NCBI GenBank assembly: GCA_964625535.1
Contig: CAZVEX010000006.1
Span: 1 to 62,843 of the forward strand
Source of the DNA: an uncultured Gammaproteobacteria bacterium
Lineage (GTDB): Bacteria > Patescibacteriota > Microgenomatia > Daviesbacterales > UBA10151
Length of the DNA: 62,843 nucleotides
Reading direction: 5' to 3'
Shown here in pieces: positions 652 through 57,309 of the stretch (its first letter is position 1; the number at the start of each line of letters is the position of its first letter). A model generated the notes under the pieces. It had not been told where the DNA came from. It saw nothing but the letters and a program-made list of their open reading frames with translations, and did not search any database. The translations under genes and the position numbers were made by a program.

Positions 652-1401
652 ATGGTAAAACCAGAGTTTTTGGTTCAACATATACATGTCGACACGCAAG
701 GAATTGATCTCCTAAACTGGCTTGAAAATTCACATTGGAGTTTAAGAGGTAAATTATCATTAGTTCAGGTTAAATTTGCTGAAGGAACTCTGACAAGAGA
801 ACATCTGGGAGAGTTGGCAAATCGGGCATTTGACATCCGTCCTTTGAAAGCAGAGGAAATTTCTGAAAATTTCCAGATCCTCGCTGACGGCGATTTTGCT
901 TTTGCCACTGAATTCGGATTTACCTTAATTCCTCATTTTGCTTCTCTCCATCAAACTGCTGATGGGGCAATAGAAGCATGGATAAGCCCGGTTTTGCTTC
1001 CCCAAAATCATCCTCTTGCAGATAGTGCTAGTAACGGGGTAGCATTATTTACCGACTCCAATCCTACACACCGTTTTATTACAGAGAGAGTACGAGAGTT
1101 TGATGAACTTACACTTGGCCGTTATATTCGCTTGACTGTAGATGATCAACCCCTGGTTTTAGCCAGTGCTCTTGCTGCATTTCCAGAAGAAGGAATTAAT
1201 ATTCACGAGGTTAAACAACCCGAACCGGAAAAAGGCGTCCCAACAGCACAACTGGCAATTCTTTTAAATCCTTGCTCCGGATTAAGCTTTGGAAGGGCTT
1301 TGAATGCCATCCGCGCCCTACCTTCTTGTAGAGCTATCAATACAGTCTTACCAGTTATTGATTTAGGGCGATGGGGCATGCTCCAAAATGAAAAAGCTTG
1401 A
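652..1401 (+). CDS. Degenerate homoserine dehydrogenase C-terminal region plus ACT domain
   Basis: FATEFGFTL..IEAWISPVLLPQNHPLA resembles the Hom C-terminal domain; GRYIRLTVDDQPLVLA..GINIHEVKQ resembles the Hom ACT domain; no Rossmann GxGxxG. Confidence 0.55.
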   Translation: MVKPEFLVQHIHVDTQGIDLLNWLENSHWSLRGKLSLVQVKFAEGTLTREHLGELANRAFDIRPLKAEEISENFQILADGDFAFATEFGFTLIPHFASLHQTADGAIEAWISPVLLPQNHPLADSASNGVALFTDSNPTHRFITERVREFDELTLGRYIRLTVDDQPLVLASALAAFPEEGINIHEVKQPEPEKGVPTAQLAILLNPCSGLSFGRALNAIRALPSCRAINTVLPVIDLGRWGMLQNEKA

Positions 1402-1460
1402 CACTTCGGATGTGTAAAGTGAAGTTAATTGGCCTTTTCTTAAGCTTCCATATATGTTAA

Positions 1461-3452
<1,992 letters not shown>

Positions 3453-3470
3453 ATCTGATACAATCAGAAC

Positions 3471-3857
3471 ATGACTCAAGTAACTATCAAATCATTTACT
3501 GATTTGAACGTCTGGAAAGAAAGCCATAAGCTTGTCTTAATGATCTACAAAATCACAAACAGTTTCCCTTCAAAAGAAACATACTCTTTAATCGATCAGA
3601 TGAGAAGAGCTGTAGCATCTATCACTGCCAATATAGCTGAAGGATTTGGGAGACAAACTTATAGAGAAAAAGCACAGTTTTACTATTTGGCACAAGGATC
3701 ATTATTAGAATTGAAAAATTTCATATTAATAGCGAAAGATGTAGGTTATTTAAAAAGTGCCGACTTCAATCAATTAGCAGATCAGGCTAATATTTCTCAT
3801 AAACTGCTGCAAGGGTTTATTCAGAAAACTAAAACATTCATAAATCATAAATCTTAA
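3471..3857 (+). CDS. Four helix bundle protein (23S rRNA intervening-sequence protein family)
   Basis: SFTDLNVWKESHKL, FP.KETYSLIDQMRRAVASITANIAEGFGR, A.GSL.EL; 128 aa. Confidence 0.9.
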   Translation: MTQVTIKSFTDLNVWKESHKLVLMIYKITNSFPSKETYSLIDQMRRAVASITANIAEGFGRQTYREKAQFYYLAQGSLLELKNFILIAKDVGYLKSADFNQLADQANISHKLLQGFIQKTKTFINHKS

Positions 3858-3871: not shown

Positions 3872-5080
3872 ATGTTAAAAGTTCATTTTTTGGGAATAGG
3901 CGGGAGTGGGGCATCGGCGGCGGCGGCTATTGCGAAGTCTCAAGGATACCAAATAACAGGTTGTGATCTGCAACCCCGCAATGAATTCACCACTCCTTTC
4001 AAAGATTCCCAGCTTTTCCAAGGCCACAATCCCGAACATTTAGAAAATATAGATATTCTGGCTGTTACTCCGGCTATTTTCTCTCTTGATCCGGAAAATC
4101 CGGAACTTGCAGAAGCCAGAAAAAGAGGCATCCCTATTATGACCTGGCAGAAGTTTTTGGGAAAGTATTTAGCCAAAGACAAATTTGTGATTGCCATAGC
4201 CGGCACTCATGGTAAAACCACCACCACTGCCATGATTGCCAAAATCCTGGAAGATGCAAACCTTGATCCGACTGTTTTGCTTGGGGCAATAGTACCCTGG
4301 TGGGGAACAAACTATAGATTAGGAAAGGGCAAAGCTGTTGTTATTGAAGCAGATGAGTACAATGATAATTTTTTAAACTTTAGGCCGGATATTGCAGTTG
4401 TCACCAATATTGAAATGGATCATCCGGAATATTTTAAGAACTTTGCAGCAGTCAAGAAAAGTTTTGATCAATTTAAAAGGCAATCAAAAAAAATCATTGA
4501 TCAACCAAATCCCAAACTGATTGATTTTCCGCTTCAAATACCCGGGGATTTTAATATTTTAAATGCCTCGCTGGCTTATCAAGTAGGTCTTTTTTTGCAA
4601 GTTGATCCAAAGATTATTCAAAAAAGCTTGAAAAATTATCAGGGTGTGGGCAGAAGATTTGAATTATTGGGAGAGTTTAAAGGGGCTAAAATTTATTCTG
4701 ATTTTGGACATCATCCTACGGAAATAAAAGTTACCATGGAGGCAGCCAGACAAAAATTTCCGGGGCAGCGCATTTTGTTAATTTATGAACCCCACATGTT
4801 TACCAGAACTTATAAATTATTTGGTGATTTTGTCAAAGTCTTCAAAGAAATTCCAATAGATAAAATCATTATTACTGATATTTATCAAAGCAGGGAAGCT
4901 GATAAAGGATTAGTTAATTCAAAACAATTAGTTAATGCAACAGAAAAAGAAAATACTACTTATGTTTCCAAAAAAAACTTGTTAGAAAAGTTAAAAAATG
5001 AATTAGGAAAAAATGATGTAGTCTTCTTCATGGGAGCAGGGGATATAGATCAACTGGCCAGGACTAATTTCTTAAATTGA
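3872..5080 (+). CDS. murC: UDP-N-acetylmuramate--L-alanine ligase
   Basis: HFLGIGGSG, AGTHGKTTT, IEADEY, NIEMDH, DFGHHPTEI. Confidence 0.88.
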   Translation: MLKVHFLGIGGSGASAAAAIAKSQGYQITGCDLQPRNEFTTPFKDSQLFQGHNPEHLENIDILAVTPAIFSLDPENPELAEARKRGIPIMTWQKFLGKYLAKDKFVIAIAGTHGKTTTTAMIAKILEDANLDPTVLLGAIVPWWGTNYRLGKGKAVVIEADEYNDNFLNFRPDIAVVTNIEMDHPEYFKNFAAVKKSFDQFKRQSKKIIDQPNPKLIDFPLQIPGDFNILNASLAYQVGLFLQVDPKIIQKSLKNYQGVGRRFELLGEFKGAKIYSDFGHHPTEIKVTMEAARQKFPGQRILLIYEPHMFTRTYKLFGDFVKVFKEIPIDKIIITDIYQSREADKGLVNSKQLVNATEKENTTYVSKKNLLEKLKNELGKNDVVFFMGAGDIDQLARTNFLN

Positions 5081-7317
5081 TTACCTCTATCTTCATAATC
5101 TTTGAATAAATTAAAACTGGCTGAAGCAGGAGACATTAAACAAATTTTTCCTTTGTCTGTATTTTTAAAAGCTAATTTTACTGCTACTTCCATTGAGTGT
5201 GCATTAAAAAATTTAATATCCTTTTTTACCGACTTCCTTATTTTTTCTCCTGTATCCGGAAACAGAATTAATGTTTTTATTTTTGACTTTGCAATTGCCG
5301 GTCCTAAAACCGAATAGTCCACCCCACGATCAAATCCTCCTGCTATTAAAGTTTGTACATCTTCCCCCAAAATCTTTAGACCATAAATAGTGGCATGGGG
5401 ATTAGTAGCCAGCGAGTCATTGTAGAATTTTATACCCTTAACTTCTCCAACATATTCCAATCTGTGAGGAAGGGGTTTGAAATTATCAATGGCTTTATTA
5501 ATTTTTTCTTCCGGAATTTTAAATAATCTTCCTATTGCTCTTGCAGCCTCAACAGAACTTTTGTTTTGAATAAGAAAATCTTTTTCAGTTTGATATTTAT
5601 AGATATTTACCTTGGCATTTTTATAATTTTCAAAACTGCCATGGTAGTCTAAGTGATCCGGGTAAAGATTTGTGATAACAGCCATATGAGGACTGGAGTT
5701 TAAATCATTAAGCTGAAAAGAAGACATTTCATAAACAATAATAGAATTTGCATTAATTTTTTCCAATAAATCAAGCGAGGGTTTACCAATGTTTCCAGTC
5801 AGATAAACATCCAATCTTCCTTTCTTTAAAACTTCATAAATCATCGCAGCTGTGGTACTCTTGCCCTTAGTGCCTGTTACCCCAATTATTTTTCCTTGGC
5901 AAATATCAAAGAAAATTTGGGTGGCAGAAGTAATTATTTTCCCTTTCTGCTTTGCTATTTTAATTTCCGGGAGATAGGGGATACCGGGAGATTTAATGAT
6001 GATATCAAAATTATTTATTTTATCCAAGTAACTTTCTCCATCTTTTGCATCGGCAGTTGCAAAATCTATATTATTTTTTTTCAAAAAATCCCGGGTTACT
6101 TGCCCTTCTCTGCCCATTCCCAAAATTAATATAGATATCTGATCTTTGTATCTTTCTAGAAGTTTTTTCCTTTTACCTTGTAAAATACCGAGCACCATTG
6201 CATATTCAATTTCCTCCTTTGTCCCCACACATTCAAAGGGTTTAAATTTTCCCGGCAGTTGTAAAAGTTCTTCCATCAAAGGAGCAAGTCTTTCATCATC
6301 CAGCAAATCCTTACCAAAAATTTCTTTAATTTTATCCCCCAAAAACGGATAAAGCATTAAATAGGTAAATAAACACTTTGAACACACTCCACACCAAACT
6401 CCTGACTTTGAACCTCTATTGCAGCTTCTAAAAAATTTGTGATATTTTTCCATCCGGGAAAACACTCTGGAAATTTGCAGTTCATTTAAACTTCTTAAAA
6501 AACTAAAATAATTTGTATTATTAGCCAAATATTTTTTGGCATATTCCTTAAAATCTTTTTCAAATTCAAAGCTTTTGGAATATTGATGATTTATTATCTG
6601 CCCATGATATTCCACATTACCTTCATCAGAAGAGGCCTCATTAGAAACAACAATATTTTTATAATCATATAAAACTGCAGCTAGGGTAGATAAAAAAGCC
6701 AAATATGCTGAAAATGGAGTATGACCATTTAAGTAACCTTTTTTGTTTAATTCCAAAAGTTTAGGGTCTATTATTCTTTTGATAATTATGCCGTCTTTGG
6801 CAATTTTTTTGGAAGCTTCAGTGGGATTTAACATTAAGGGGGTACCCTTTAAGGTTTCCAAGGTTACAATCGAATCTTTACCACCGCTAACTAAAATTAA
6901 ATCTCTGTTTTTTAACTGACCATTAAATGGGGGATATTGAATGTCGGAATCAATCACAAATTTCACTAAATTATTTTTGGTAAAATCAATTTTATTTTTG
7001 TAAAAAAATTCTCCCAGACCTTTTATTAAAAGATCTTTCCAAAACTTAATCTGCTCTTTGTCCAAATATCCTGCCTTAATAACAATTTCAGGTGAGCAGG
7101 TGGCTTTCCAATAACTTAACAGTTCCACCATCCCCAGATTGAAAATTAAGTTATGTGGAATAAACTTGGTCGCAGGAAAAATAATTTCCGGTTTAAATTT
7201 AATATCAGGACTTATTGAAAAATCAAAAGTGATCTTAAGATTTTCTCCATCTTTGGATATATCAAATCCCTCATAAATAAATTGAGGGTGTTTAGCCCTA
7301 AGCTCCTTAAAATTCAT
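5050..7317 (-). CDS. murL-murD: Fused MurL (UDP-MurNAc-L-Ala-L-Glu epimerase) and MurD/MurD2 ligase
   Basis: N-half: SGGKDS, NGHTPFSA, SNE.S..EGN, INHQYSKS, SCN..WCG.C.KC. C-half: ILGMGREG, SPGIP, GVTGTKGKSTT, EMSSFQL, DHLDYH, NDSLATN, SPASASF. ATG at 7317 preferred over TTG at 7326. Confidence 0.85.
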   Translation of the reverse strand: MNFKELRAKHPQFIYEGFDISKDGENLKITFDFSISPDIKFKPEIIFPATKFIPHNLIFNLGMVELLSYWKATCSPEIVIKAGYLDKEQIKFWKDLLIKGLGEFFYKNKIDFTKNNLVKFVIDSDIQYPPFNGQLKNRDLILVSGGKDSIVTLETLKGTPLMLNPTEASKKIAKDGIIIKRIIDPKLLELNKKGYLNGHTPFSAYLAFLSTLAAVLYDYKNIVVSNEASSDEGNVEYHGQIINHQYSKSFEFEKDFKEYAKKYLANNTNYFSFLRSLNELQISRVFSRMEKYHKFFRSCNRGSKSGVWCGVCSKCLFTYLMLYPFLGDKIKEIFGKDLLDDERLAPLMEELLQLPGKFKPFECVGTKEEIEYAMVLGILQGKRKKLLERYKDQISILILGMGREGQVTRDFLKKNNIDFATADAKDGESYLDKINNFDIIIKSPGIPYLPEIKIAKQKGKIITSATQIFFDICQGKIIGVTGTKGKSTTAAMIYEVLKKGRLDVYLTGNIGKPSLDLLEKINANSIIVYEMSSFQLNDLNSSPHMAVITNLYPDHLDYHGSFENYKNAKVNIYKYQTEKDFLIQNKSSVEAARAIGRLFKIPEEKINKAIDNFKPLPHRLEYVGEVKGIKFYNDSLATNPHATIYGLKILGEDVQTLIAGGFDRGVDYSVLGPAIAKSKIKTLILFPDTGEKIRKSVKKDIKFFNAHSMEVAVKLAFKNTDKGKICLMSPASASFNLFKDYEDRGNQFKKLVLAS

Positions 7318-46627: not shown

Positions 46628-47986
46628 TTATGCTGCTGCAGGGAGTTCTTTAGATTCCTCTTTGGGCGGGCGGCCGCGGCCTTTTTCCAAACCGTGAAAG
46701 CGTACCCGCTCGGCCCTGAAAAGCAGCGATATCTCACCGGTTGGCCCATTGCGGTGTTTTTGAATATCCAAAGTCACCAGTTCCGGCTTTTCCGGATCTT
46801 CCCGCCATAGAAACATCACCACATCTGCATCCTGTTCTATGGCTCCGCTCTCCCGCAGATCAGCCAGCTGCGGTTTTCTGGTACCGCGCTGCTCCACTGC
46901 CCGCGACAGCTGGGAAATAGCCAAAACCGGAATTTTTAGTTCTCTCGCTAAATTTTTAAGATTTTGAGAAATTTCCGATACTTCCTGCACCCTGTTTTCC
47001 AGGTTTCGCCCTCTGATAAGTTGCAAATAATCCACAATTAAAAATTTTAAACCGTGTTCAATCTGCAATCTTCTGGCTTTGGTCCTTATTTCGGATATGG
47101 AGCTTCCGGGAGTATCGTCAATAAAAAGCGGGGCTTCTGCCAACTCCCCCATGGCCAAAGACAACTTATCAAAATCTTTTTCATCAAGTCTTCCTGTTTT
47201 TAGCTTCCAGGCATCAATATCAGCTTGACCTACCAACAGCCGGTCCACCAGCTCTTCTTTACTCATTTCCAGAGAAAAAATCCCCACCGGCAATCCTGCC
47301 GAAACCGCCACGAACTGGGCAATGTTTAAAGCCATGGAAGTTTTACCCTGCCCGGGACGGGAAGCTAAAATAATTAAATTAGAATCCTGCATGCCGGCCA
47401 GTTTAGAGTCCAAATCTTTAAATCCGGTTGGCACCCCTCTAAGCTTACCCGAGCTTTTCTGCAACTCGTCAAGTCTGTCAAAACTCTCCGTCAGGGCGTC
47501 CTTAATGGGGATAAAATCCCGCGCCACATGTTGTTGGGCCAGGGAAAAGATTCCTCCCTCGGCCTGTTCCAGCAAATCTTCAATTGTTTGGGACTCATCG
47601 TAAGCTTTTTCAATTAGACCAGTGGCCTGGGAAATCAGGCTTCGCCTGAGGGCATGTTCTTTAATAATTCTGGCGTAATATTCAACATGGGCAGAGGTTG
47701 GTACCATGTTAACCAAGGTAGTCAAATATGCCGAACCCCCAACTTTGTCATAAACTCCGCTTCTTTTTAGCTCCTCTGTCAGAGTAACCAAATCAATCGG
47801 CTCCCGTCTTTCAAAAAGACTCTGCATGGCCGAATAAATAGATCCATGTTGTTCGCTCCTGTAAAAATTGCCGGAGTGGATTATCTCCAAAACCTTAACA
47901 ATGGCGTCTTTATCAATCAATAGCGCTCCCAAAAGGGATTGCTCGGCATCGATATTTTGCGGCGGAAGTTTAGTTACATTAGCCAT
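46628..47986 (-). CDS. dnaB: Replicative DNA helicase
   Basis: LPPQNIDAEQSLLG, SRPGQGKTS, FSLEMS, VDYLQL, SQLSR, DLRESGAIEQDAD, KHRNGPTG. Confidence 0.97.
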   Translation of the reverse strand: MANVTKLPPQNIDAEQSLLGALLIDKDAIVKVLEIIHSGNFYRSEQHGSIYSAMQSLFERREPIDLVTLTEELKRSGVYDKVGGSAYLTTLVNMVPTSAHVEYYARIIKEHALRRSLISQATGLIEKAYDESQTIEDLLEQAEGGIFSLAQQHVARDFIPIKDALTESFDRLDELQKSSGKLRGVPTGFKDLDSKLAGMQDSNLIILASRPGQGKTSMALNIAQFVAVSAGLPVGIFSLEMSKEELVDRLLVGQADIDAWKLKTGRLDEKDFDKLSLAMGELAEAPLFIDDTPGSSISEIRTKARRLQIEHGLKFLIVDYLQLIRGRNLENRVQEVSEISQNLKNLARELKIPVLAISQLSRAVEQRGTRKPQLADLRESGAIEQDADVVMFLWREDPEKPELVTLDIQKHRNGPTGEISLLFRAERVRFHGLEKGRGRPPKEESKELPAAA

Positions 47987-51071: not shown

Positions 51072-51099
51072 TTGACAAGTTGACAATTTGTGGTATAAT
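51072..51099 (+). promoter_or_regulatory. Consensus sigma70 promoter of the T-box operon
   Basis: TTGACA-N16-TATAAT with extended TG. Confidence 0.85.
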
Positions 51100-51105
51100 G
51101 TATTT

Positions 51106-51345
51106 ACAATTAAATAACCAAAGGCATTATCAGTGGAGTCACGATCCACGAGCCGAGGGTCAAAATACCCTACAGAAGTTAAACTGTAAAATGTAACAGA
51201 CGATGTCGCCTAGCGGAGTCGCCACTAAGAGGTCCGATAAGAAATTATCGAGACAAACAGGATGGGACCGCGGGAGGTCCTTTTTTAATGCCTCTCGTTC
51301 CTTGAATTTCACTTCATGTGGAGTTCAAAGAACGGGAGGTTTTTT
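51106..51345 (+). promoter_or_regulatory. T-box riboswitch, probably His-specific, transcription-attenuation type
   Basis: Stem I GGC..GTGGA-GTCACGA-TCCAC-GAGCC; Stem II AGGGT/ACCCT; IIA/B pseudoknot ACAG-AAGTTAAA-CTGT with GTTA/TAAC; Stem III CGATAA-GAAA-TTATCG; T-box AGGATGGGACCGCG; antiterminator AGGA/TCCT plus GCGGGAGG/CCTCTCGT. Confidence 0.85.
51291..51345 (+). terminator. Intrinsic terminator of the T-box leader
   Basis: CCTCTCGTTC..TTGAATTTCAC-TTCAT-GTGGAGTTCAA..GAACGGGAGG followed by T6. Confidence 0.9.
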
Positions 51346-51352
51346 AATAGTT

Positions 51353-52006
51353 ATGAAAACAAAGAAATTTTTAATTGCTAAAGGAAACTCCACCCTGCTT
51401 GTCTGGGATTGTCCTGAATGGAAAAAATCTCAGATTATTAAAAAGTACTTAGGAGATGTGGAACAAATTGGTTTCATTGAAGACTTCAATGGAATAAGTT
51501 CTCTTAAAATGATGGGCGGAGAACTTTGTATTAATGCCACAATTGCCTTGGCATCACAATTAGGTGCTAATGGAAAGTTAAAAACTAGTGGCCTTAATCA
51601 GGAAATTGAATTTAAGAACAAAAATAAATTTACGTATTTAAAATTCTCTCTACCATTTACTAGAGAAGGAAATATTGTTCTCTTTCCCGGTATAGGTTTT
51701 ATTTGTTCTAGTAGACTAATCTATGGTGCCAAGAAAGAATTATCTTCACTGGCTAAAAAATATTCTCTACCAGCCTTTGGATTAGTTTCTTATCAGAATA
51801 ATAAAATCACTCCCTATGTTTATGTCAGAAATACTAACTCTTTAGTTGAAGAAACCGCCTGTGGATCTGGCTCAATTGCTTACTCCATTGTCACAGGTTA
51901 CTCCAAAGTAATTCACCCAACTGGGCAGTCAGTTCTGGTGCGCCAAAGAGGCGATATCTTTATTGTAGGAGCTAAAGTTGTTAAGATAGAAGAAAACTAT
52001 GATTAA
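51353..52006 (+). CDS. DapF-fold amino-acid racemase/epimerase (CntK histidine racemase-like)
   Basis: GNSTLLV, EQIGFI, MMGGELCINA, ETACGSGS (two catalytic Cys); true start is the ATG at 51353. Confidence 0.75.
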   Translation: MKTKKFLIAKGNSTLLVWDCPEWKKSQIIKKYLGDVEQIGFIEDFNGISSLKMMGGELCINATIALASQLGANGKLKTSGLNQEIEFKNKNKFTYLKFSLPFTREGNIVLFPGIGFICSSRLIYGAKKELSSLAKKYSLPAFGLVSYQNNKITPYVYVRNTNSLVEETACGSGSIAYSIVTGYSKVIHPTGQSVLVRQRGDIFIVGAKVVKIEENYD

Positions 52007-52886
52007 AGCACCGCCGACACCAAAAGGGTTTAGAGATATCAAGCCGGAACTGGCCAAAAAACGCCGCGAGGTAATTTCAAAAATTGCTGATGTTTTAGAA
52101 CAAGAAGGCTTTGTCCCTATTGAAACCCCTACTATTGAATTTGCAGATACACTCAAGGGAAAATACGGAGAAGAAGAAAAATTGATTTATGAGTTTACGG
52201 ATAGGGGCGATAGAAAACTGGCTCTGCGCTATGATTTGACAGTTCCTTTGGCTCGATATGTGGCCACCTACAATCCTCCCCTGCCATTTCGCCGCTATCA
52301 AATTGGCCAGGTTTTTCGCGGGGAAAATCCTCAAAAAGGCAGATTTCGTGAATTTACCCAGTTTGATTTTGATTCTGTGGGATCCAATGATCCAAAAGAG
52401 GATGCTTTGATCATTGCTGCAGCAATCAAATCTTTGGAAGTTTTGGGGGTTAAAAATTTTAAGATCTTAATTAATGACAGAAATATTTTTGCCGGCCTGC
52501 CTCCTTCGATTATTCGAATAATTGACAAAATCAAAAAAATTGGTCGCGATGAAGTGGTTAATGAATTGATTAAAGCAGGTTATTCGGAAAAGGAGTTGCA
52601 AACTATTGAATCTAACGAACCAACGGAAAATTTACAAAATATATTTCAGGAACTTGAGAATTTGGGTATTTCAAAAGATAAATATCAATTCTCACCTACT
52701 CTGGCTAGAGGTTTGGATTATTATACCGGCATAATCTTAGAAGCAGAAATTGAAGAATATGGTGGAGGCTCTGTTGGAGGCGGAGGCAGATATGATAATT
52801 TAATAGGCATGTTTTCTAAAAAACAAGCTCCTGCTGTTGGATTTTCTTTTGGTCTTGATCGTCTACTGGAAATCCTCTATCCTTAA
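51999..52886 (+). CDS. hisS: Histidine--tRNA ligase lacking the anticodon-binding domain
   Basis: KGFRD, LRYDLTVPLARY, FRGENPQKGRFREFTQ, LARGLDYYTG, GGGRYD, GFSFGLDRL; stops right after motif 3. Confidence 0.88.
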   Translation: MIKAPPTPKGFRDIKPELAKKRREVISKIADVLEQEGFVPIETPTIEFADTLKGKYGEEEKLIYEFTDRGDRKLALRYDLTVPLARYVATYNPPLPFRRYQIGQVFRGENPQKGRFREFTQFDFDSVGSNDPKEDALIIAAAIKSLEVLGVKNFKILINDRNIFAGLPPSIIRIIDKIKKIGRDEVVNELIKAGYSEKELQTIESNEPTENLQNIFQELENLGISKDKYQFSPTLARGLDYYTGIILEAEIEEYGGGSVGGGGRYDNLIGMFSKKQAPAVGFSFGLDRLLEILYP

Positions 52887-52891
52887 TATAG

Positions 52892-53830
52892 ATGACTTCT
52901 GCCATTTTTACCAAGCCCTGGCCATATTTGGCACTAATACTTGCCCATATGATTTGGGGGGGTAATTTTGTGGTGGCTAAGGTAACTCTGCAGGAGTTTC
53001 CTGTCTACTCTCTGGCATTTTTAAGATTCGCCCTGGCTTCCCTGTTTTTAGCTCCATTTTTTTTAACTAATACAAAAAAGGTTAAGATTCACAAAAAAGA
53101 TATCCCAAAATTAACTTTAATCGGGGTTTTGATGATCACCTTAAACATTGCTTTTTTCTTTACCGGCATACAAAAAACCACTGCCATTAATGCCTCTGTT
53201 TTAACCTTAATTATTCCCATGTTATCGGTCCTCCTGGGCTGGTGGTTTTTAAAAGAAAAAGTCTATTTAATTAATCTGGCCGGCATCTTTGCCGGGCTTA
53301 TGGGAGCGTTAATTATTATTGGTGTGCCCAGAGCCCTTTTCGGGGATGTGTCTATTCAATCTTTAACCGGCAACTTTTTGATTATTCTGGCGTCCGTAGT
53401 TTGGGTCGCAGGAGCAATTATCTCCCGTCAAATGTTGCAAAAATATTCCTCCCTGACAGTGGTGGCCTTTGCATTCCTTATCGGGATGATCACTTTTTTC
53501 CCTCTGGCCGCTTTTGAATATCTGGAAAATCCTGGCTGGACTACTAGAGTGAGCCTGCTGGGAATTCTGGGACTTTTGTACATGACCATGCTATCATCGG
53601 TATCTGCCTATTTTCTTTTTGAATGGGGACTGGCCAAAACTTCCGTGATGATCGCGGATTTATTTCAATACATTGAGCCATTTGTAGCTACGACTTTGGC
53701 AGTCTTAATTTTATCCGAAAGCTTGTCGGTTGATTTTGGCATAGGAGCAGTGTTAATAGCTGCGGGGGTCTATCTTGGTACTTTTGCCAAAGAAGCCCAC
53801 CATAGACATCACAAGGCACATAGGATATAA
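52892..53830 (+). CDS. EamA/DMT-family transporter
   Basis: [16 protein letters not shown], ten transmembrane segments in two repeats, YIEPFVA..VLILSE; His-rich tail. Confidence 0.9.
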
Positions 53831-56137: not shown

Positions 56138-57309
56138 TACTCTAATAATTCCAAAGCTTTATCCAATTGCGGATCCTTGGTTGAATCTTCCTTATCTCCC
56201 TCTATTTTAACATCCGGTTCCAAACCCTGGGTCTCATTAACCCATCTGCCGTTGGGAGTAAGCCACTTTGCCACCGTAATGTGAATTCCTGTCCCCTTAG
56301 GAAGATCTTGGGTTTCCTGAATGGTGCCTTTGCCAAAAGATTTCTCCCCTACCACCTTGGCCCTGCCCCGATCCTGCAGCGCTCCGGCCACAATTTCCGA
56401 AGCGGATGCGGAACCTTTGTTAATTAAAACTATCAGGGAAAGATCAAACAACTGACCTTTTCTGTTAACCTTAAAGGCTTGTTTTCTCCCCTGGCCGTCT
56501 TCCTGCAAAACCACGTCTCCGCCATCCAAAAACTCTGAGGAAACAAAGACCGCACCGTCAAGATATCCCCCGGGATTATTTCGAACATCCAAAATAATCC
56601 CTTGGGGACGCTTTGATAAAATATCAGAAACGGCCTCTGTCCATTCCGATCTGGTCCGCTCCGAAAAACGGGAAAGCTTTAAAACTGCCACATTTTTGCC
56701 GGATTTGGTCTTTTTGTATTTAAGCTCCACGCTTTTAACCAAAATAGTATCTCTTATCAGGGTAAATGTTCTGGTTTCCTCTTCTTCCTCCCTAGCAATA
56801 ACCAGTTCAACCTTAGTCCCTTTTTCTCCCCTTATTAATTTAACCGCTTCAGCCAAGGTCATGCCCGCGGTGTCTGTGTTGTCAATTTTGATAATCCAAT
56901 CCCCTGGTTTAATTCCTGCTTTCTCTGCCGGCATACCGGAAAGCGGAGCAATCACCACCAATTTTTTCTCCTCGTTAAAACCCAGCTGAATACCCACGCC
57001 TTCAAAAGTGCCGCCCAATTCTTCTTTGGAAGCTTTTTGCACTTCCGGCGGCAGGAAAAATGTGTAGGGATCACCTGCCGCAGACACCATGCCGGAAATG
57101 GCGCCATAAAATAATTTGTCCGTATCCAGAGTTTCCCTTTCCAGATAATCTCTGGAAAGCAAATTCCAGGTATCCCAAAACAATTTAAAATCAACATTGA
57201 TATTTTTGGGGGGATCGTTATCGACCTGCCCCAGTTTCCAACCGATGACAAACGTTAGTATTACAATCAAAACAATTCTTAAATTTATCCGGAGAAAAAA
57301 ATTTTTCAT
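56137..57309 (-). CDS. ctpA: S41 carboxy-terminal processing protease
   Basis: DPYT, PDZ, LDVRNNPGG, SASASEIVAGAL, SFGKGTIQ, GLEPD. Confidence 0.92.
   Translation of the reverse strand: MKNFFLRINLRIVLIVILTFVIGWKLGQVDNDPPKNINVDFKLFWDTWNLLSRDYLERETLDTDKLFYGAISGMVSAAGDPYTFFLPPEVQKASKEELGGTFEGVGIQLGFNEEKKLVVIAPLSGMPAEKAGIKPGDWIIKIDNTDTAGMTLAEAVKLIRGEKGTKVELVIAREEEEETRTFTLIRDTILVKSVELKYKKTKSGKNVAVLKLSRFSERTRSEWTEAVSDILSKRPQGIILDVRNNPGGYLDGAVFVSSEFLDGGDVVLQEDGQGRKQAFKVNRKGQLFDLSLIVLINKGSASASEIVAGALQDRGRAKVVGEKSFGKGTIQETQDLPKGTGIHITVAKWLTPNGRWVNETQGLEPDVKIEGDKEDSTKDPQLDKALELLE

Follow-up and report, generated by a model that had tools for sequence, protein, structure and literature searches.

Can a T-box riboswitch with an ultrashort Stem I be coupled to transcription termination, and is such a switch to be found in bacteria of the Candidate Phyla Radiation (CPR)? 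The question is raised by a leader at positions 51106–51345 on the forward strand of contig CAZVEX010000006.1, of which the full 62,843-nt stretch (hereafter, the window) was analysed. T-boxes are a model system for RNA–RNA ligand sensing as well as antibiotic targets, and their known range lies mainly in the Firmicutes and Actinobacteria. An initial annotation, made by a model from the sequence, had described the leader as a His-type T-box with a terminator in a CPR-like genome. The latter placement agrees with the nearest named relatives of the window's proteins, which belong to Daviesbacteria, Curtissbacteria, Microgenomates and Patescibacteria. We conclude with considerable confidence that the leader belongs to a CPR family of T-box riboswitches that had not been catalogued before, that it is specific for histidine, and that it most likely acts by transcription attenuation.

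Leader architecture and detection by Rfam

By all criteria of sequence and structure except a long Stem I and the Rfam score, the leader is a T-box. Stem I, with its GGC/GCC closing helix, 5-bp upper stem and GUCACGA loop, was found where the initial annotation had placed it and covaries among relatives. The promoter, the GUUA/UAAC pseudoknot, the GAAA-capped Stem III and the T-box core with its antiterminator were likewise borne out by the analyses below (coordinates in Table 1). Stem II is also present and covarying, although the initial annotation left out that it comprises only five base pairs. Further elements that it did not describe are a linker hairpin between the pseudoknot and Stem III (hairpin Y), a terminator-like hairpin formed from the tRNA-binding bulge (T1, as distinct from the long terminator T2), the loss of a domain from the product of hisS, and two sibling leaders of Trp and Arg type.

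A promoter scan of the window leader gave a consensus match of 12/12 with an extended −10 element, and transcription is predicted to start near 51106. Among the homologous leaders listed, 86 of 113 have a promoter matching at least 10/12 positions at the same distance. The internal loop of Stem I is asymmetric, with AUUAUCA on its 5' side and GA on its 3' side, and an F-box-like CUGUAAAAU directly follows Stem IIA. The purines ahead of Stem III resemble the RAG element described for T-boxes (PMC11297988). The T-box core AGGAUGGGACCGCG agrees with the consensus AGGGUGGNACCGCG at 13 of 14 positions, and the 7-nt bulge UGGGACC is bordered by the antiterminator helices A1 and A2. As a whole, the 241-nt leader stretch has a minimum free energy z-score of −4.99, and none of 200 shuffles reached an equally good fold.

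An Infernal search with RF00230, the check proposed in the initial annotation, supported the assignment in rank but not in score: in a local scan the leader was the top match (E = 9e-4), at 25.5 bits against a gathering cutoff of 93. The model was matched throughout except in distal Stem I, where 7 nt stand in place of 76 model positions. This is the ultrashort Stem I of the initial annotation, and in the RF00230 alignment the distal region is absent, with neither the AG bulge nor the T-loop platform for the tRNA elbow. Hairpin Y has no counterpart in the model, which handles the region as an insertion. Across the whole window, Rfam reported no T-box at the gathering threshold, and in E-value mode the leader was the sole T-box-like match. 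Relatives of the leader score 33–51 bits against the same cutoff, too low to be picked up by catalogues based on Rfam. Other TGGNACC sites in the window, at 46879 and 8375, were rejected, as they apparently lie in coding regions (by eye) and have no T-box context.

Homologous leaders and covariation

Homologs of the gene immediately downstream (51353–52006; 118 in number, mostly from Patescibacteria) led to a collection of 80 GTDB loci (individual loci are cited by L numbers). A clearly homologous leader was found in four of them (L008, L011, L020 and L039), with the same loop, the same core and compensatory changes in the stems; that of L039 is broken. The element was present in 6 of the 81 sources reached through this racemase-like gene (the window and the 80 loci), and the T-box thus does not travel with the gene. 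Metagenomes were scanned with the DNA pattern AGTCACGAT-N(105-135)-GGATGGGACCGCG, which returned at least 120 stretches, 116 distinct leaders among them, and homologous leaders from metagenomes and GTDB together number more than 120.

A comparison across related leaders, also proposed in the initial annotation, came out in its favour. Covariation was tested over 81 leaders aligned with MAFFT in the absence of structural information, using a structure derived from the window sequence alone. In this alignment 90.2% of cells were paired, compared to 35–48% when partners were slid by one to three columns, and 38 of 52 pairs were altered on both sides. The covariation score was 0.404, relative to 0.05–0.12 in the slid controls, and none of 500 shuffles attained any of the observed measures of pairing or covariation. 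Compensatory changes occurred in upper Stem I, Stem II, Stem IIA, the pseudoknot, hairpin Y, Stem III and A2. The upper stem of Stem I is 99.8–100% paired across homologs, its first pair appearing as CG (34), GC (26) or UA (16). Compensation was found at all five pairs of Stem II, three of four in Stem IIA, all four in the pseudoknot (one of which is UA in 50, CG in 13 and GC in 8), eight of ten in hairpin Y and every pair of Stem III. A2 displays GC to AU compensations in 6–7 relatives; A1 is invariant and therefore uninformative in this regard. A covariance-model alignment of 102 matches was 92.5% paired, and RNAalifold recovered upper Stem I, Stem II, Stem IIA, outer hairpin Y and the antiterminator de novo. 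Together with the gene context described below, this covariation rules out a chance resemblance to a T-box.

The window copy departs from its relatives in certain details. Its Stem I internal loop reads UCA/GA in the MAFFT alignment, where most relatives have the K-turn-like (kink-turn-like) UGA/GA or UGA/AA, and hairpin Y has an A-C mismatch as its second pair. Coupled with the domain lost from the regulated hisS, and with the occurrence of a truncated leader in L012 and the broken one in L039, these details could be taken to mean that the window copy is a decaying relic which no longer switches and is either constitutively terminating or leaky. We consider this highly improbable. The copy scores 200.6 bits against the family model, among the highest values obtained, and its helices, promoter and both terminators are all intact. 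Since other members share both the UCA-type loop and the A-C mismatch, these are subfamily traits, and histidyl-tRNA synthetases (HisRS) without the anticodon-binding domain are widespread and conserved.

Variation of other kinds was noted among relatives. The truncated leader of L012 (2786–2909) keeps Stem I, Stem II, the IIA/B element and hairpin Y, but where other leaders continue with Stem III, the T-box core and the antiterminator, it has a small hairpin with a U-run. It represents a degenerate copy or else a switch of another design. Structured inserts of 60–110 nt, which matched no Rfam family, occur in the antiterminator loop of some relatives (L097, L193, L198, L182, L183/L194, L197 and L190). 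Those of L097, L193 and L198 are located between the U-run of T1 and CCUCUCGUUCCUU, and have in common GAUGAGA..UCUCAUC, AUCCUCC..GGAGGAU and CGUGUACGAAUAGUAC, with compensatory changes.

Histidine specificity

Three independent lines argue for specificity to histidine, namely the CAC codon in the specifier loop, the agreement of UGGG with the discriminator base C73, and a regulon which is wholly histidine-related. CAC is the sole codon in the loop consistent with the remaining evidence, and UGGG is complementary to the 3' CCCA end of tRNA-His (C73-C74-C75-A76). The initial annotation had reasoned from CAC and UGGG to the same assignment, which gains from the tRNA-His genes lying directly behind homologous leaders: all 38 that were parsed have C73, and 35 have G-1.

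The first feature downstream, among 126 leaders listed, was a tRNA-His(GTG) gene on the same strand in 56, hisS in 20 and a racemase-like gene in 16. The tRNA-His genes begin at a median of 8 nt past the terminator U-run, directly behind the terminator, such that the riboswitch would gate the gene of its own ligand. A literature search returned no report of a T-box upstream of a tRNA gene. Examples of tRNA-His(GTG) genes with both G-1 and C73 are found in L011 (2913–2987) and in other loci such as L082, L089, L092, L176, L184 and L199. Genes of histidine biosynthesis also occur behind the leader, as hisG-hisD-hisC/HAD in L163 and as hisG, the one gene checked, in L085 and L109. The last-named locus belongs to the Saccharibacteria, a lineage usually described as without amino-acid biosynthesis, where a hisG-like gene behind the leader is unexpected.

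Expression platform

The 5' arm of T2 (CCUCUCGUUCCU, 51291–51302) is the 3' strand of the antiterminator, and the two structures are therefore mutually exclusive. Computed stabilities are −12.9 kcal/mol for the antiterminator, −30.5 kcal/mol for T2 and −43.7 kcal/mol for T1 plus T2, and termination is the default in these computed folds, as it is for other T-boxes. Seven nucleotides separate the U6 of T2 from the ATG at 51353, which is the arrangement that the initial annotation had given for its mutually exclusive terminator. Its proposal that a minimal Stem I is here coupled to a terminator extends well beyond the window, since at least 103 of the 115 relatives listed share the design of T2 (median 52 nt and −30.4 kcal/mol).

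The 3' arm of T2 ends in GGGAGG (51334–51339), which resembles a Shine–Dalgarno (SD) sequence and lies 13 nt upstream of the ATG. In many relatives (for example L020, L081, L087, L088 and L090) the start codon comes directly after the U-run, with a spacing of 6–7 nt, and the terminator may thus double as a sequestrator of the ribosome-binding site. Control might then be mainly translational, with GGGAGG serving as a ribosome-binding site sequestered in T2 until the antiterminator is stabilised by tRNA, which is the arrangement of actinobacterial ileS. Two Saccharibacteria variants, L109 and L189, have in fact replaced T2 by an SD-sequestering UCCUU/AAGGAGG helix beside the start codon. In the window, however, the helix runs into a clean U6 and is widely spaced from the ATG, and it is complementarity to the T-box core that imposes GGGAGG. 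Moreover, an identical T2 stands before tRNA-His genes in 56 listed leaders, where no ribosome-binding site is needed, and must therefore act on transcription rather than on ribosome binding. We accordingly find mainly translational control improbable, while allowing that the proximity of GGGAGG to the ATG may have some added translational effect in the window leader. As for the variants, the nearest named relatives of the HisRS of L189 are Saccharimonas and Saccharibacteria; members of the family thus occur in two CPR classes or more, and both kinds of platform are in use among them.

Transcription attenuation, the mode that we favour for the window leader, would proceed as follows. Transcription would begin at the consensus promoter, and Stem I with its CAC loop, the 5-bp Stem II and the IIA/B pseudoknot would form a decoding module that binds the GUG anticodon of tRNA-His. 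Where this tRNA is uncharged, its 3' CCCA end would pair with the UGGG bulge, a pairing that would stabilise the weak antiterminator and allow RNA polymerase to continue into the racemase-like gene, hisS and eamA. When no uncharged tRNA-His is present, the bulge would fold into T1 with its U6, and T2 with its own U6 would capture the 3' strand of the antiterminator, stopping transcription 7 nt before the ATG. We infer the binding of tRNA, the discrimination between its charged and uncharged forms, and termination at T1 and T2.

The T1 hairpin and sibling T-boxes

The tRNA-binding bulge supplies the 5' arm of T1, and the 5' strand of A2 supplies the loop of T1, which therefore excludes the antiterminator. 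Among the leaders listed, T1 was found in 110 of 114 distinct sequences, each with a U-run, and in one of two registers (GGGACC/GGUCC, or GACCGC/GCGGUC with a GNRA-type loop), both of which pair with the T-box. The U-run is at least 90% conserved, and the nucleotides past it vary. In the Saccharibacteria variants L109 and L189, T1 and its U-run are kept and T2 is absent. T1 might terminate transcription early, cause a hairpin pause or act as an anti-antiterminator.

The family model also matched two leaders of the same miniature architecture with other specifiers. That of L148 (5704–5467, minus strand) combines the loop UUGAU-UGG-GA with a perfect GA/GA K-turn, and also has UGGU and a terminator with U7; directly behind it lies a tRNA-Trp gene (5418–5347) with A73, which UGGU matches, followed by a 454-aa open reading frame (ORF). 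That of L179 (622–833) has the loop GU-CGC-GA and UGGU, with an Arg-type specifier. In both siblings, a hairpin with a U-run is located within an enlarged Stem III.

These observations bear on a two-checkpoint form of attenuation, in which T1 has a function of its own, as an early terminator or a hairpin-dependent pause, and is not a by-product. If a pre-bound tRNA captured UGGG with its 3' end, T1 would be prevented, and the choice between antiterminator and T2 would then test charging, while a pause at T1 would buy time for a Stem I that makes no contact with the tRNA elbow. The near-universal presence of T1 and its conserved U-run, their retention where T2 has been dropped, and the hairpins in Stem III of the Trp and Arg siblings are all consistent with such a scheme. 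So, too, is the finding that elbow contact much accelerates the first step of tRNA binding, a contact that short-Stem-I T-boxes do without (PMC11297988). On the other hand, T1 is weak for a terminator, with a stem of 5–6 bp, a 6-nt loop and a stability of −10.2 kcal/mol, and four family members lack it. It could serve purely as an anti-antiterminator, and under the scheme a 4-bp helix between tRNA and bulge would have to form ahead of A1 and A2. We regard two checkpoints as possible, if somewhat short of probable.

The genes of the sibling loci are themselves of some interest. The L179 operon (ORFs at 915–3745), which lies behind a leader stretch at 622–895, comprises a 405-aa ORF, a creatininase-like ORF and an arginase-like third ORF, the last two recognised by eye only. 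ORFs behind T-box-controlled tRNA genes in L148 (555 aa and 454 aa) and L129 (392 aa and 291 aa) had no match in Pfam, and their products may relate to tRNA or amino acids. The two in L148 (2168–3835 for the 555-aa ORF and 3886–5250 for the 454-aa ORF, minus strand) display marginal mutual similarity (E = 0.004).

Confidence in the T-box assignment

Several aspects of the data weigh against the assignment of a histidine-specific, transcription-attenuating T-box. Firstly, the support for it consists of anatomy, covariation, exclusive helices and gene context, all of which derive from sequence and computed folds. Secondly, the specifier loop and T-box core were fixed by the pattern used to search metagenomes; their invariance in that set is therefore uninformative, and independent support for their conservation comes only from the five GTDB loci reached through the protein. 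Thirdly, the Rfam score is far under the gathering cutoff, Stem II is without the canonical long helix that bears the S-turn, and the kink may be weakened by the UCA loop of the window copy. Lastly, if T1 were to terminate transcription efficiently before the 3' strand of the antiterminator is made, a canonical switch would be inoperable.

Regulated genes and feature coordinates

The initial annotation had placed hisS downstream of the leader. The gene is present, but as the second of the unit, and a racemase-like gene comes first (Table 1). The 217-aa product of the latter matched only HisR (3e-12) and CntK (4e-10) in NCBIfam, both histidine-racemase families and both far below cutoffs, and the best PDB matches to a profile of its family were the histidine racemases 9cr1 and 9cr6 (1e-19).

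The 295-aa HisRS scores 294 bits against TIGR00442, over profile positions 2–312 of 406. In syntenic relatives the enzyme is about 400–420 aa in length (396 aa in L008). HisRS of 293–316 aa are nonetheless widespread in Daviesbacteria, Curtissbacteria and Microgenomates, often annotated as HisZ, and HisRS without the anticodon-binding domain were also seen in L085, L088, L107, L124, L132 and L143. The window holds no second hisS and no genes of histidine biosynthesis. A literature search found nothing pairing HisRS without the anticodon-binding domain with Patescibacteria. The gene order hisS-eamA-rpmE is shared with L008, and eamA lies behind hisS in many relatives.

Table 1. Features of the leader and of the genes behind it, in window coordinates.
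Feature	Position	Strand	Description
Sigma-70 promoter	51072–51099	+	TTGACA 51072–77, 16-nt spacer, TG-extended TATAAT 51094–99 (TGgTATAAT)
Ultrashort 32-nt Stem I	51123–51154	+	GGC 51123–25 with GCC 51152–54; GUGGA 51133–37 with UCCAC 51145–49
7-nt terminal specifier loop GUCACGA	51138–51144	+	His codon CAC at 51140–42
Stem II	51156–51171	+	5 bp, A-rich loop CAAAAU
Stem IIA and IIA/B pseudoknot	51172–51197	+	IIA 51172–87, ACAG/CUGU; GUUA 51178–81 with UAAC 51194–97
Hairpin Y (linker from IIA/B to Stem III)	51199–51223	+	Internal-loop strands GAUGUC and GGAGUC conserved
Purines and Stem III	51227–51254	+	AAGAG (RAG-like) conserved, then GAAA-capped Stem III 51232–54
Discriminator domain	51259–51302	+	T-box core AGGAUGGGACCGCG 51259–72; UGGG 51263–66
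Antiterminator A1	51259–62 with 51299–302	+	AGGA/UCCU
Antiterminator A2	51270–77 with 51291–98	+	GCGGGAGG/CCUCUCGU
T1 hairpin and U6	51264–51286	+	GGGACC-GCGGGA-GGUCC(U), flagged by terminator scan
T2 49-nt terminator hairpin and U6	51291–51339; U6 51340–45	+	5' arm is the antiterminator 3' strand
First regulated gene	51353–52006	+	217-aa two-cysteine DapF-fold protein resembling histidine racemase
Second regulated gene	51999–52886	+	hisS, 295-aa catalytic core, anticodon-binding domain absent
EamA-family transporter	52892–53830	+	Probably last gene of unit

Elsewhere in the window, a match to Rickettsia sRNA47 (RF02800) that stays below threshold (44.6 bits where the cutoff is 60; E = 3.6e-8) at 56316–56433 on the forward strand covers model positions 40–157 of 316, and may reflect a conserved coding or RNA element.

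Comparison with known systems

Relative to the canonical T-boxes of RF00230, such as B. subtilis tyrS and the leaders of hisS and his operons in Firmicutes, the order of modules in the CPR family is identical. Both have a T-box of the same 14-nt type, UGGN matched to the discriminator base, a strand shared between antiterminator and terminator, an intrinsic terminator with a U-run, and control of aminoacyl-tRNA synthetase and amino-acid genes. The canonical Stem I is long, however, whereas that of the CPR family has nothing above the specifier, which sits in the 7-nt terminal loop. The family further differs in its 5-bp Stem II, the extra linker hairpin, the second terminator-like hairpin formed from the bulge, its CPR lineage, its Rfam scores of 25–51 bits where the cutoff is 93, and the frequent control of the tRNA gene itself.

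A truncated Stem I and the lack of elbow contact are common to the CPR family and the translational ileS T-boxes of Actinobacteria (M. tuberculosis and M. smegmatis; TBDB class II), and the specifier loop GUCACGA, closing a 5-bp stem, conforms to the truncated Stem I by which that TBDB class is recognised. Sherwood et al. reportedly described, in 2015, a specifier in the terminal loop of actinobacterial T-boxes. The two groups differ in that the ileS elements have an SD-sequestering translational platform, where at least 103 of the 115 CPR relatives listed have an intrinsic terminator. The former are Ile-specific and actinobacterial, the latter His-specific (with Trp and Arg siblings) and Microgenomates-like, with hairpin Y and T1 in addition and a much shorter Stem II. 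Short-Stem-I T-boxes of Actinobacteria rely on Stem II and the IIA/B element at the anticodon, and possess the RAG purines, Stem III and the bulge (PMC11297988, PMC7778990).

The glyQS T-box offers another naturally reduced, transcription-attenuating element, but one which keeps a full Stem I with its elbow platform and is without Stem II and IIA/B, the opposite of the CPR family. The leader-peptide attenuator of the enterobacterial his operon likewise senses the charging of tRNA-His through alternative terminator and antiterminator hairpins. There, a ribosome stalls on His codons, whereas the CPR leader has no leader ORF and its RNA would bind the tRNA directly.

Implications

Translational T-boxes have been characterized by a short Stem I and transcriptional ones by a long Stem I (PMC7778990, PMC11297988), and the truncated-Stem-I model of TBDB was applied only to Actinobacteria and to class I hits (PMC7778990). 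Falling below the Rfam threshold, the present family was probably missed by TBDB class I too. Our literature search returned no report tying T-box riboswitches to Patescibacteria, candidate phyla or Saccharibacteria. To our knowledge, and in that part of the literature which was checked, neither an ultrashort Stem I coupled to a terminator nor control of a cognate tRNA gene by a T-box has been described.

It is tempting to extend these findings to a T-box class of the CPR bacteria's own, with His, Trp and Arg members, in which an ultrashort Stem I is joined to attenuation and hairpin-plus-U-tract checkpoints offset the lost elbow contact. T1, formed from the acceptor-binding bulge, would then cause the tRNA's 3' end to be read twice, and the switch would often gate its own tRNA gene, creating an autoregulatory loop on tRNA supply. 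We put this forward as a speculative proposal which, taken as a whole, is rather unlikely to hold.

The family itself breaks the link between a long Stem I and transcription, and between a short Stem I and translation, and extends T-boxes into the Patescibacteria. At about 190 nt, it offers structural and kinetic studies a transcriptional T-box that is minimal by nature. The combination of a HisRS lacking a domain with a histidine-racemase-like enzyme, both under the sensing of tRNA-His, may offer a lead on how these bacteria acquire histidine. More broadly, the family suggests that genes are regulated in an amino-acid-specific manner even in organisms to which very little regulatory capacity is ascribed.

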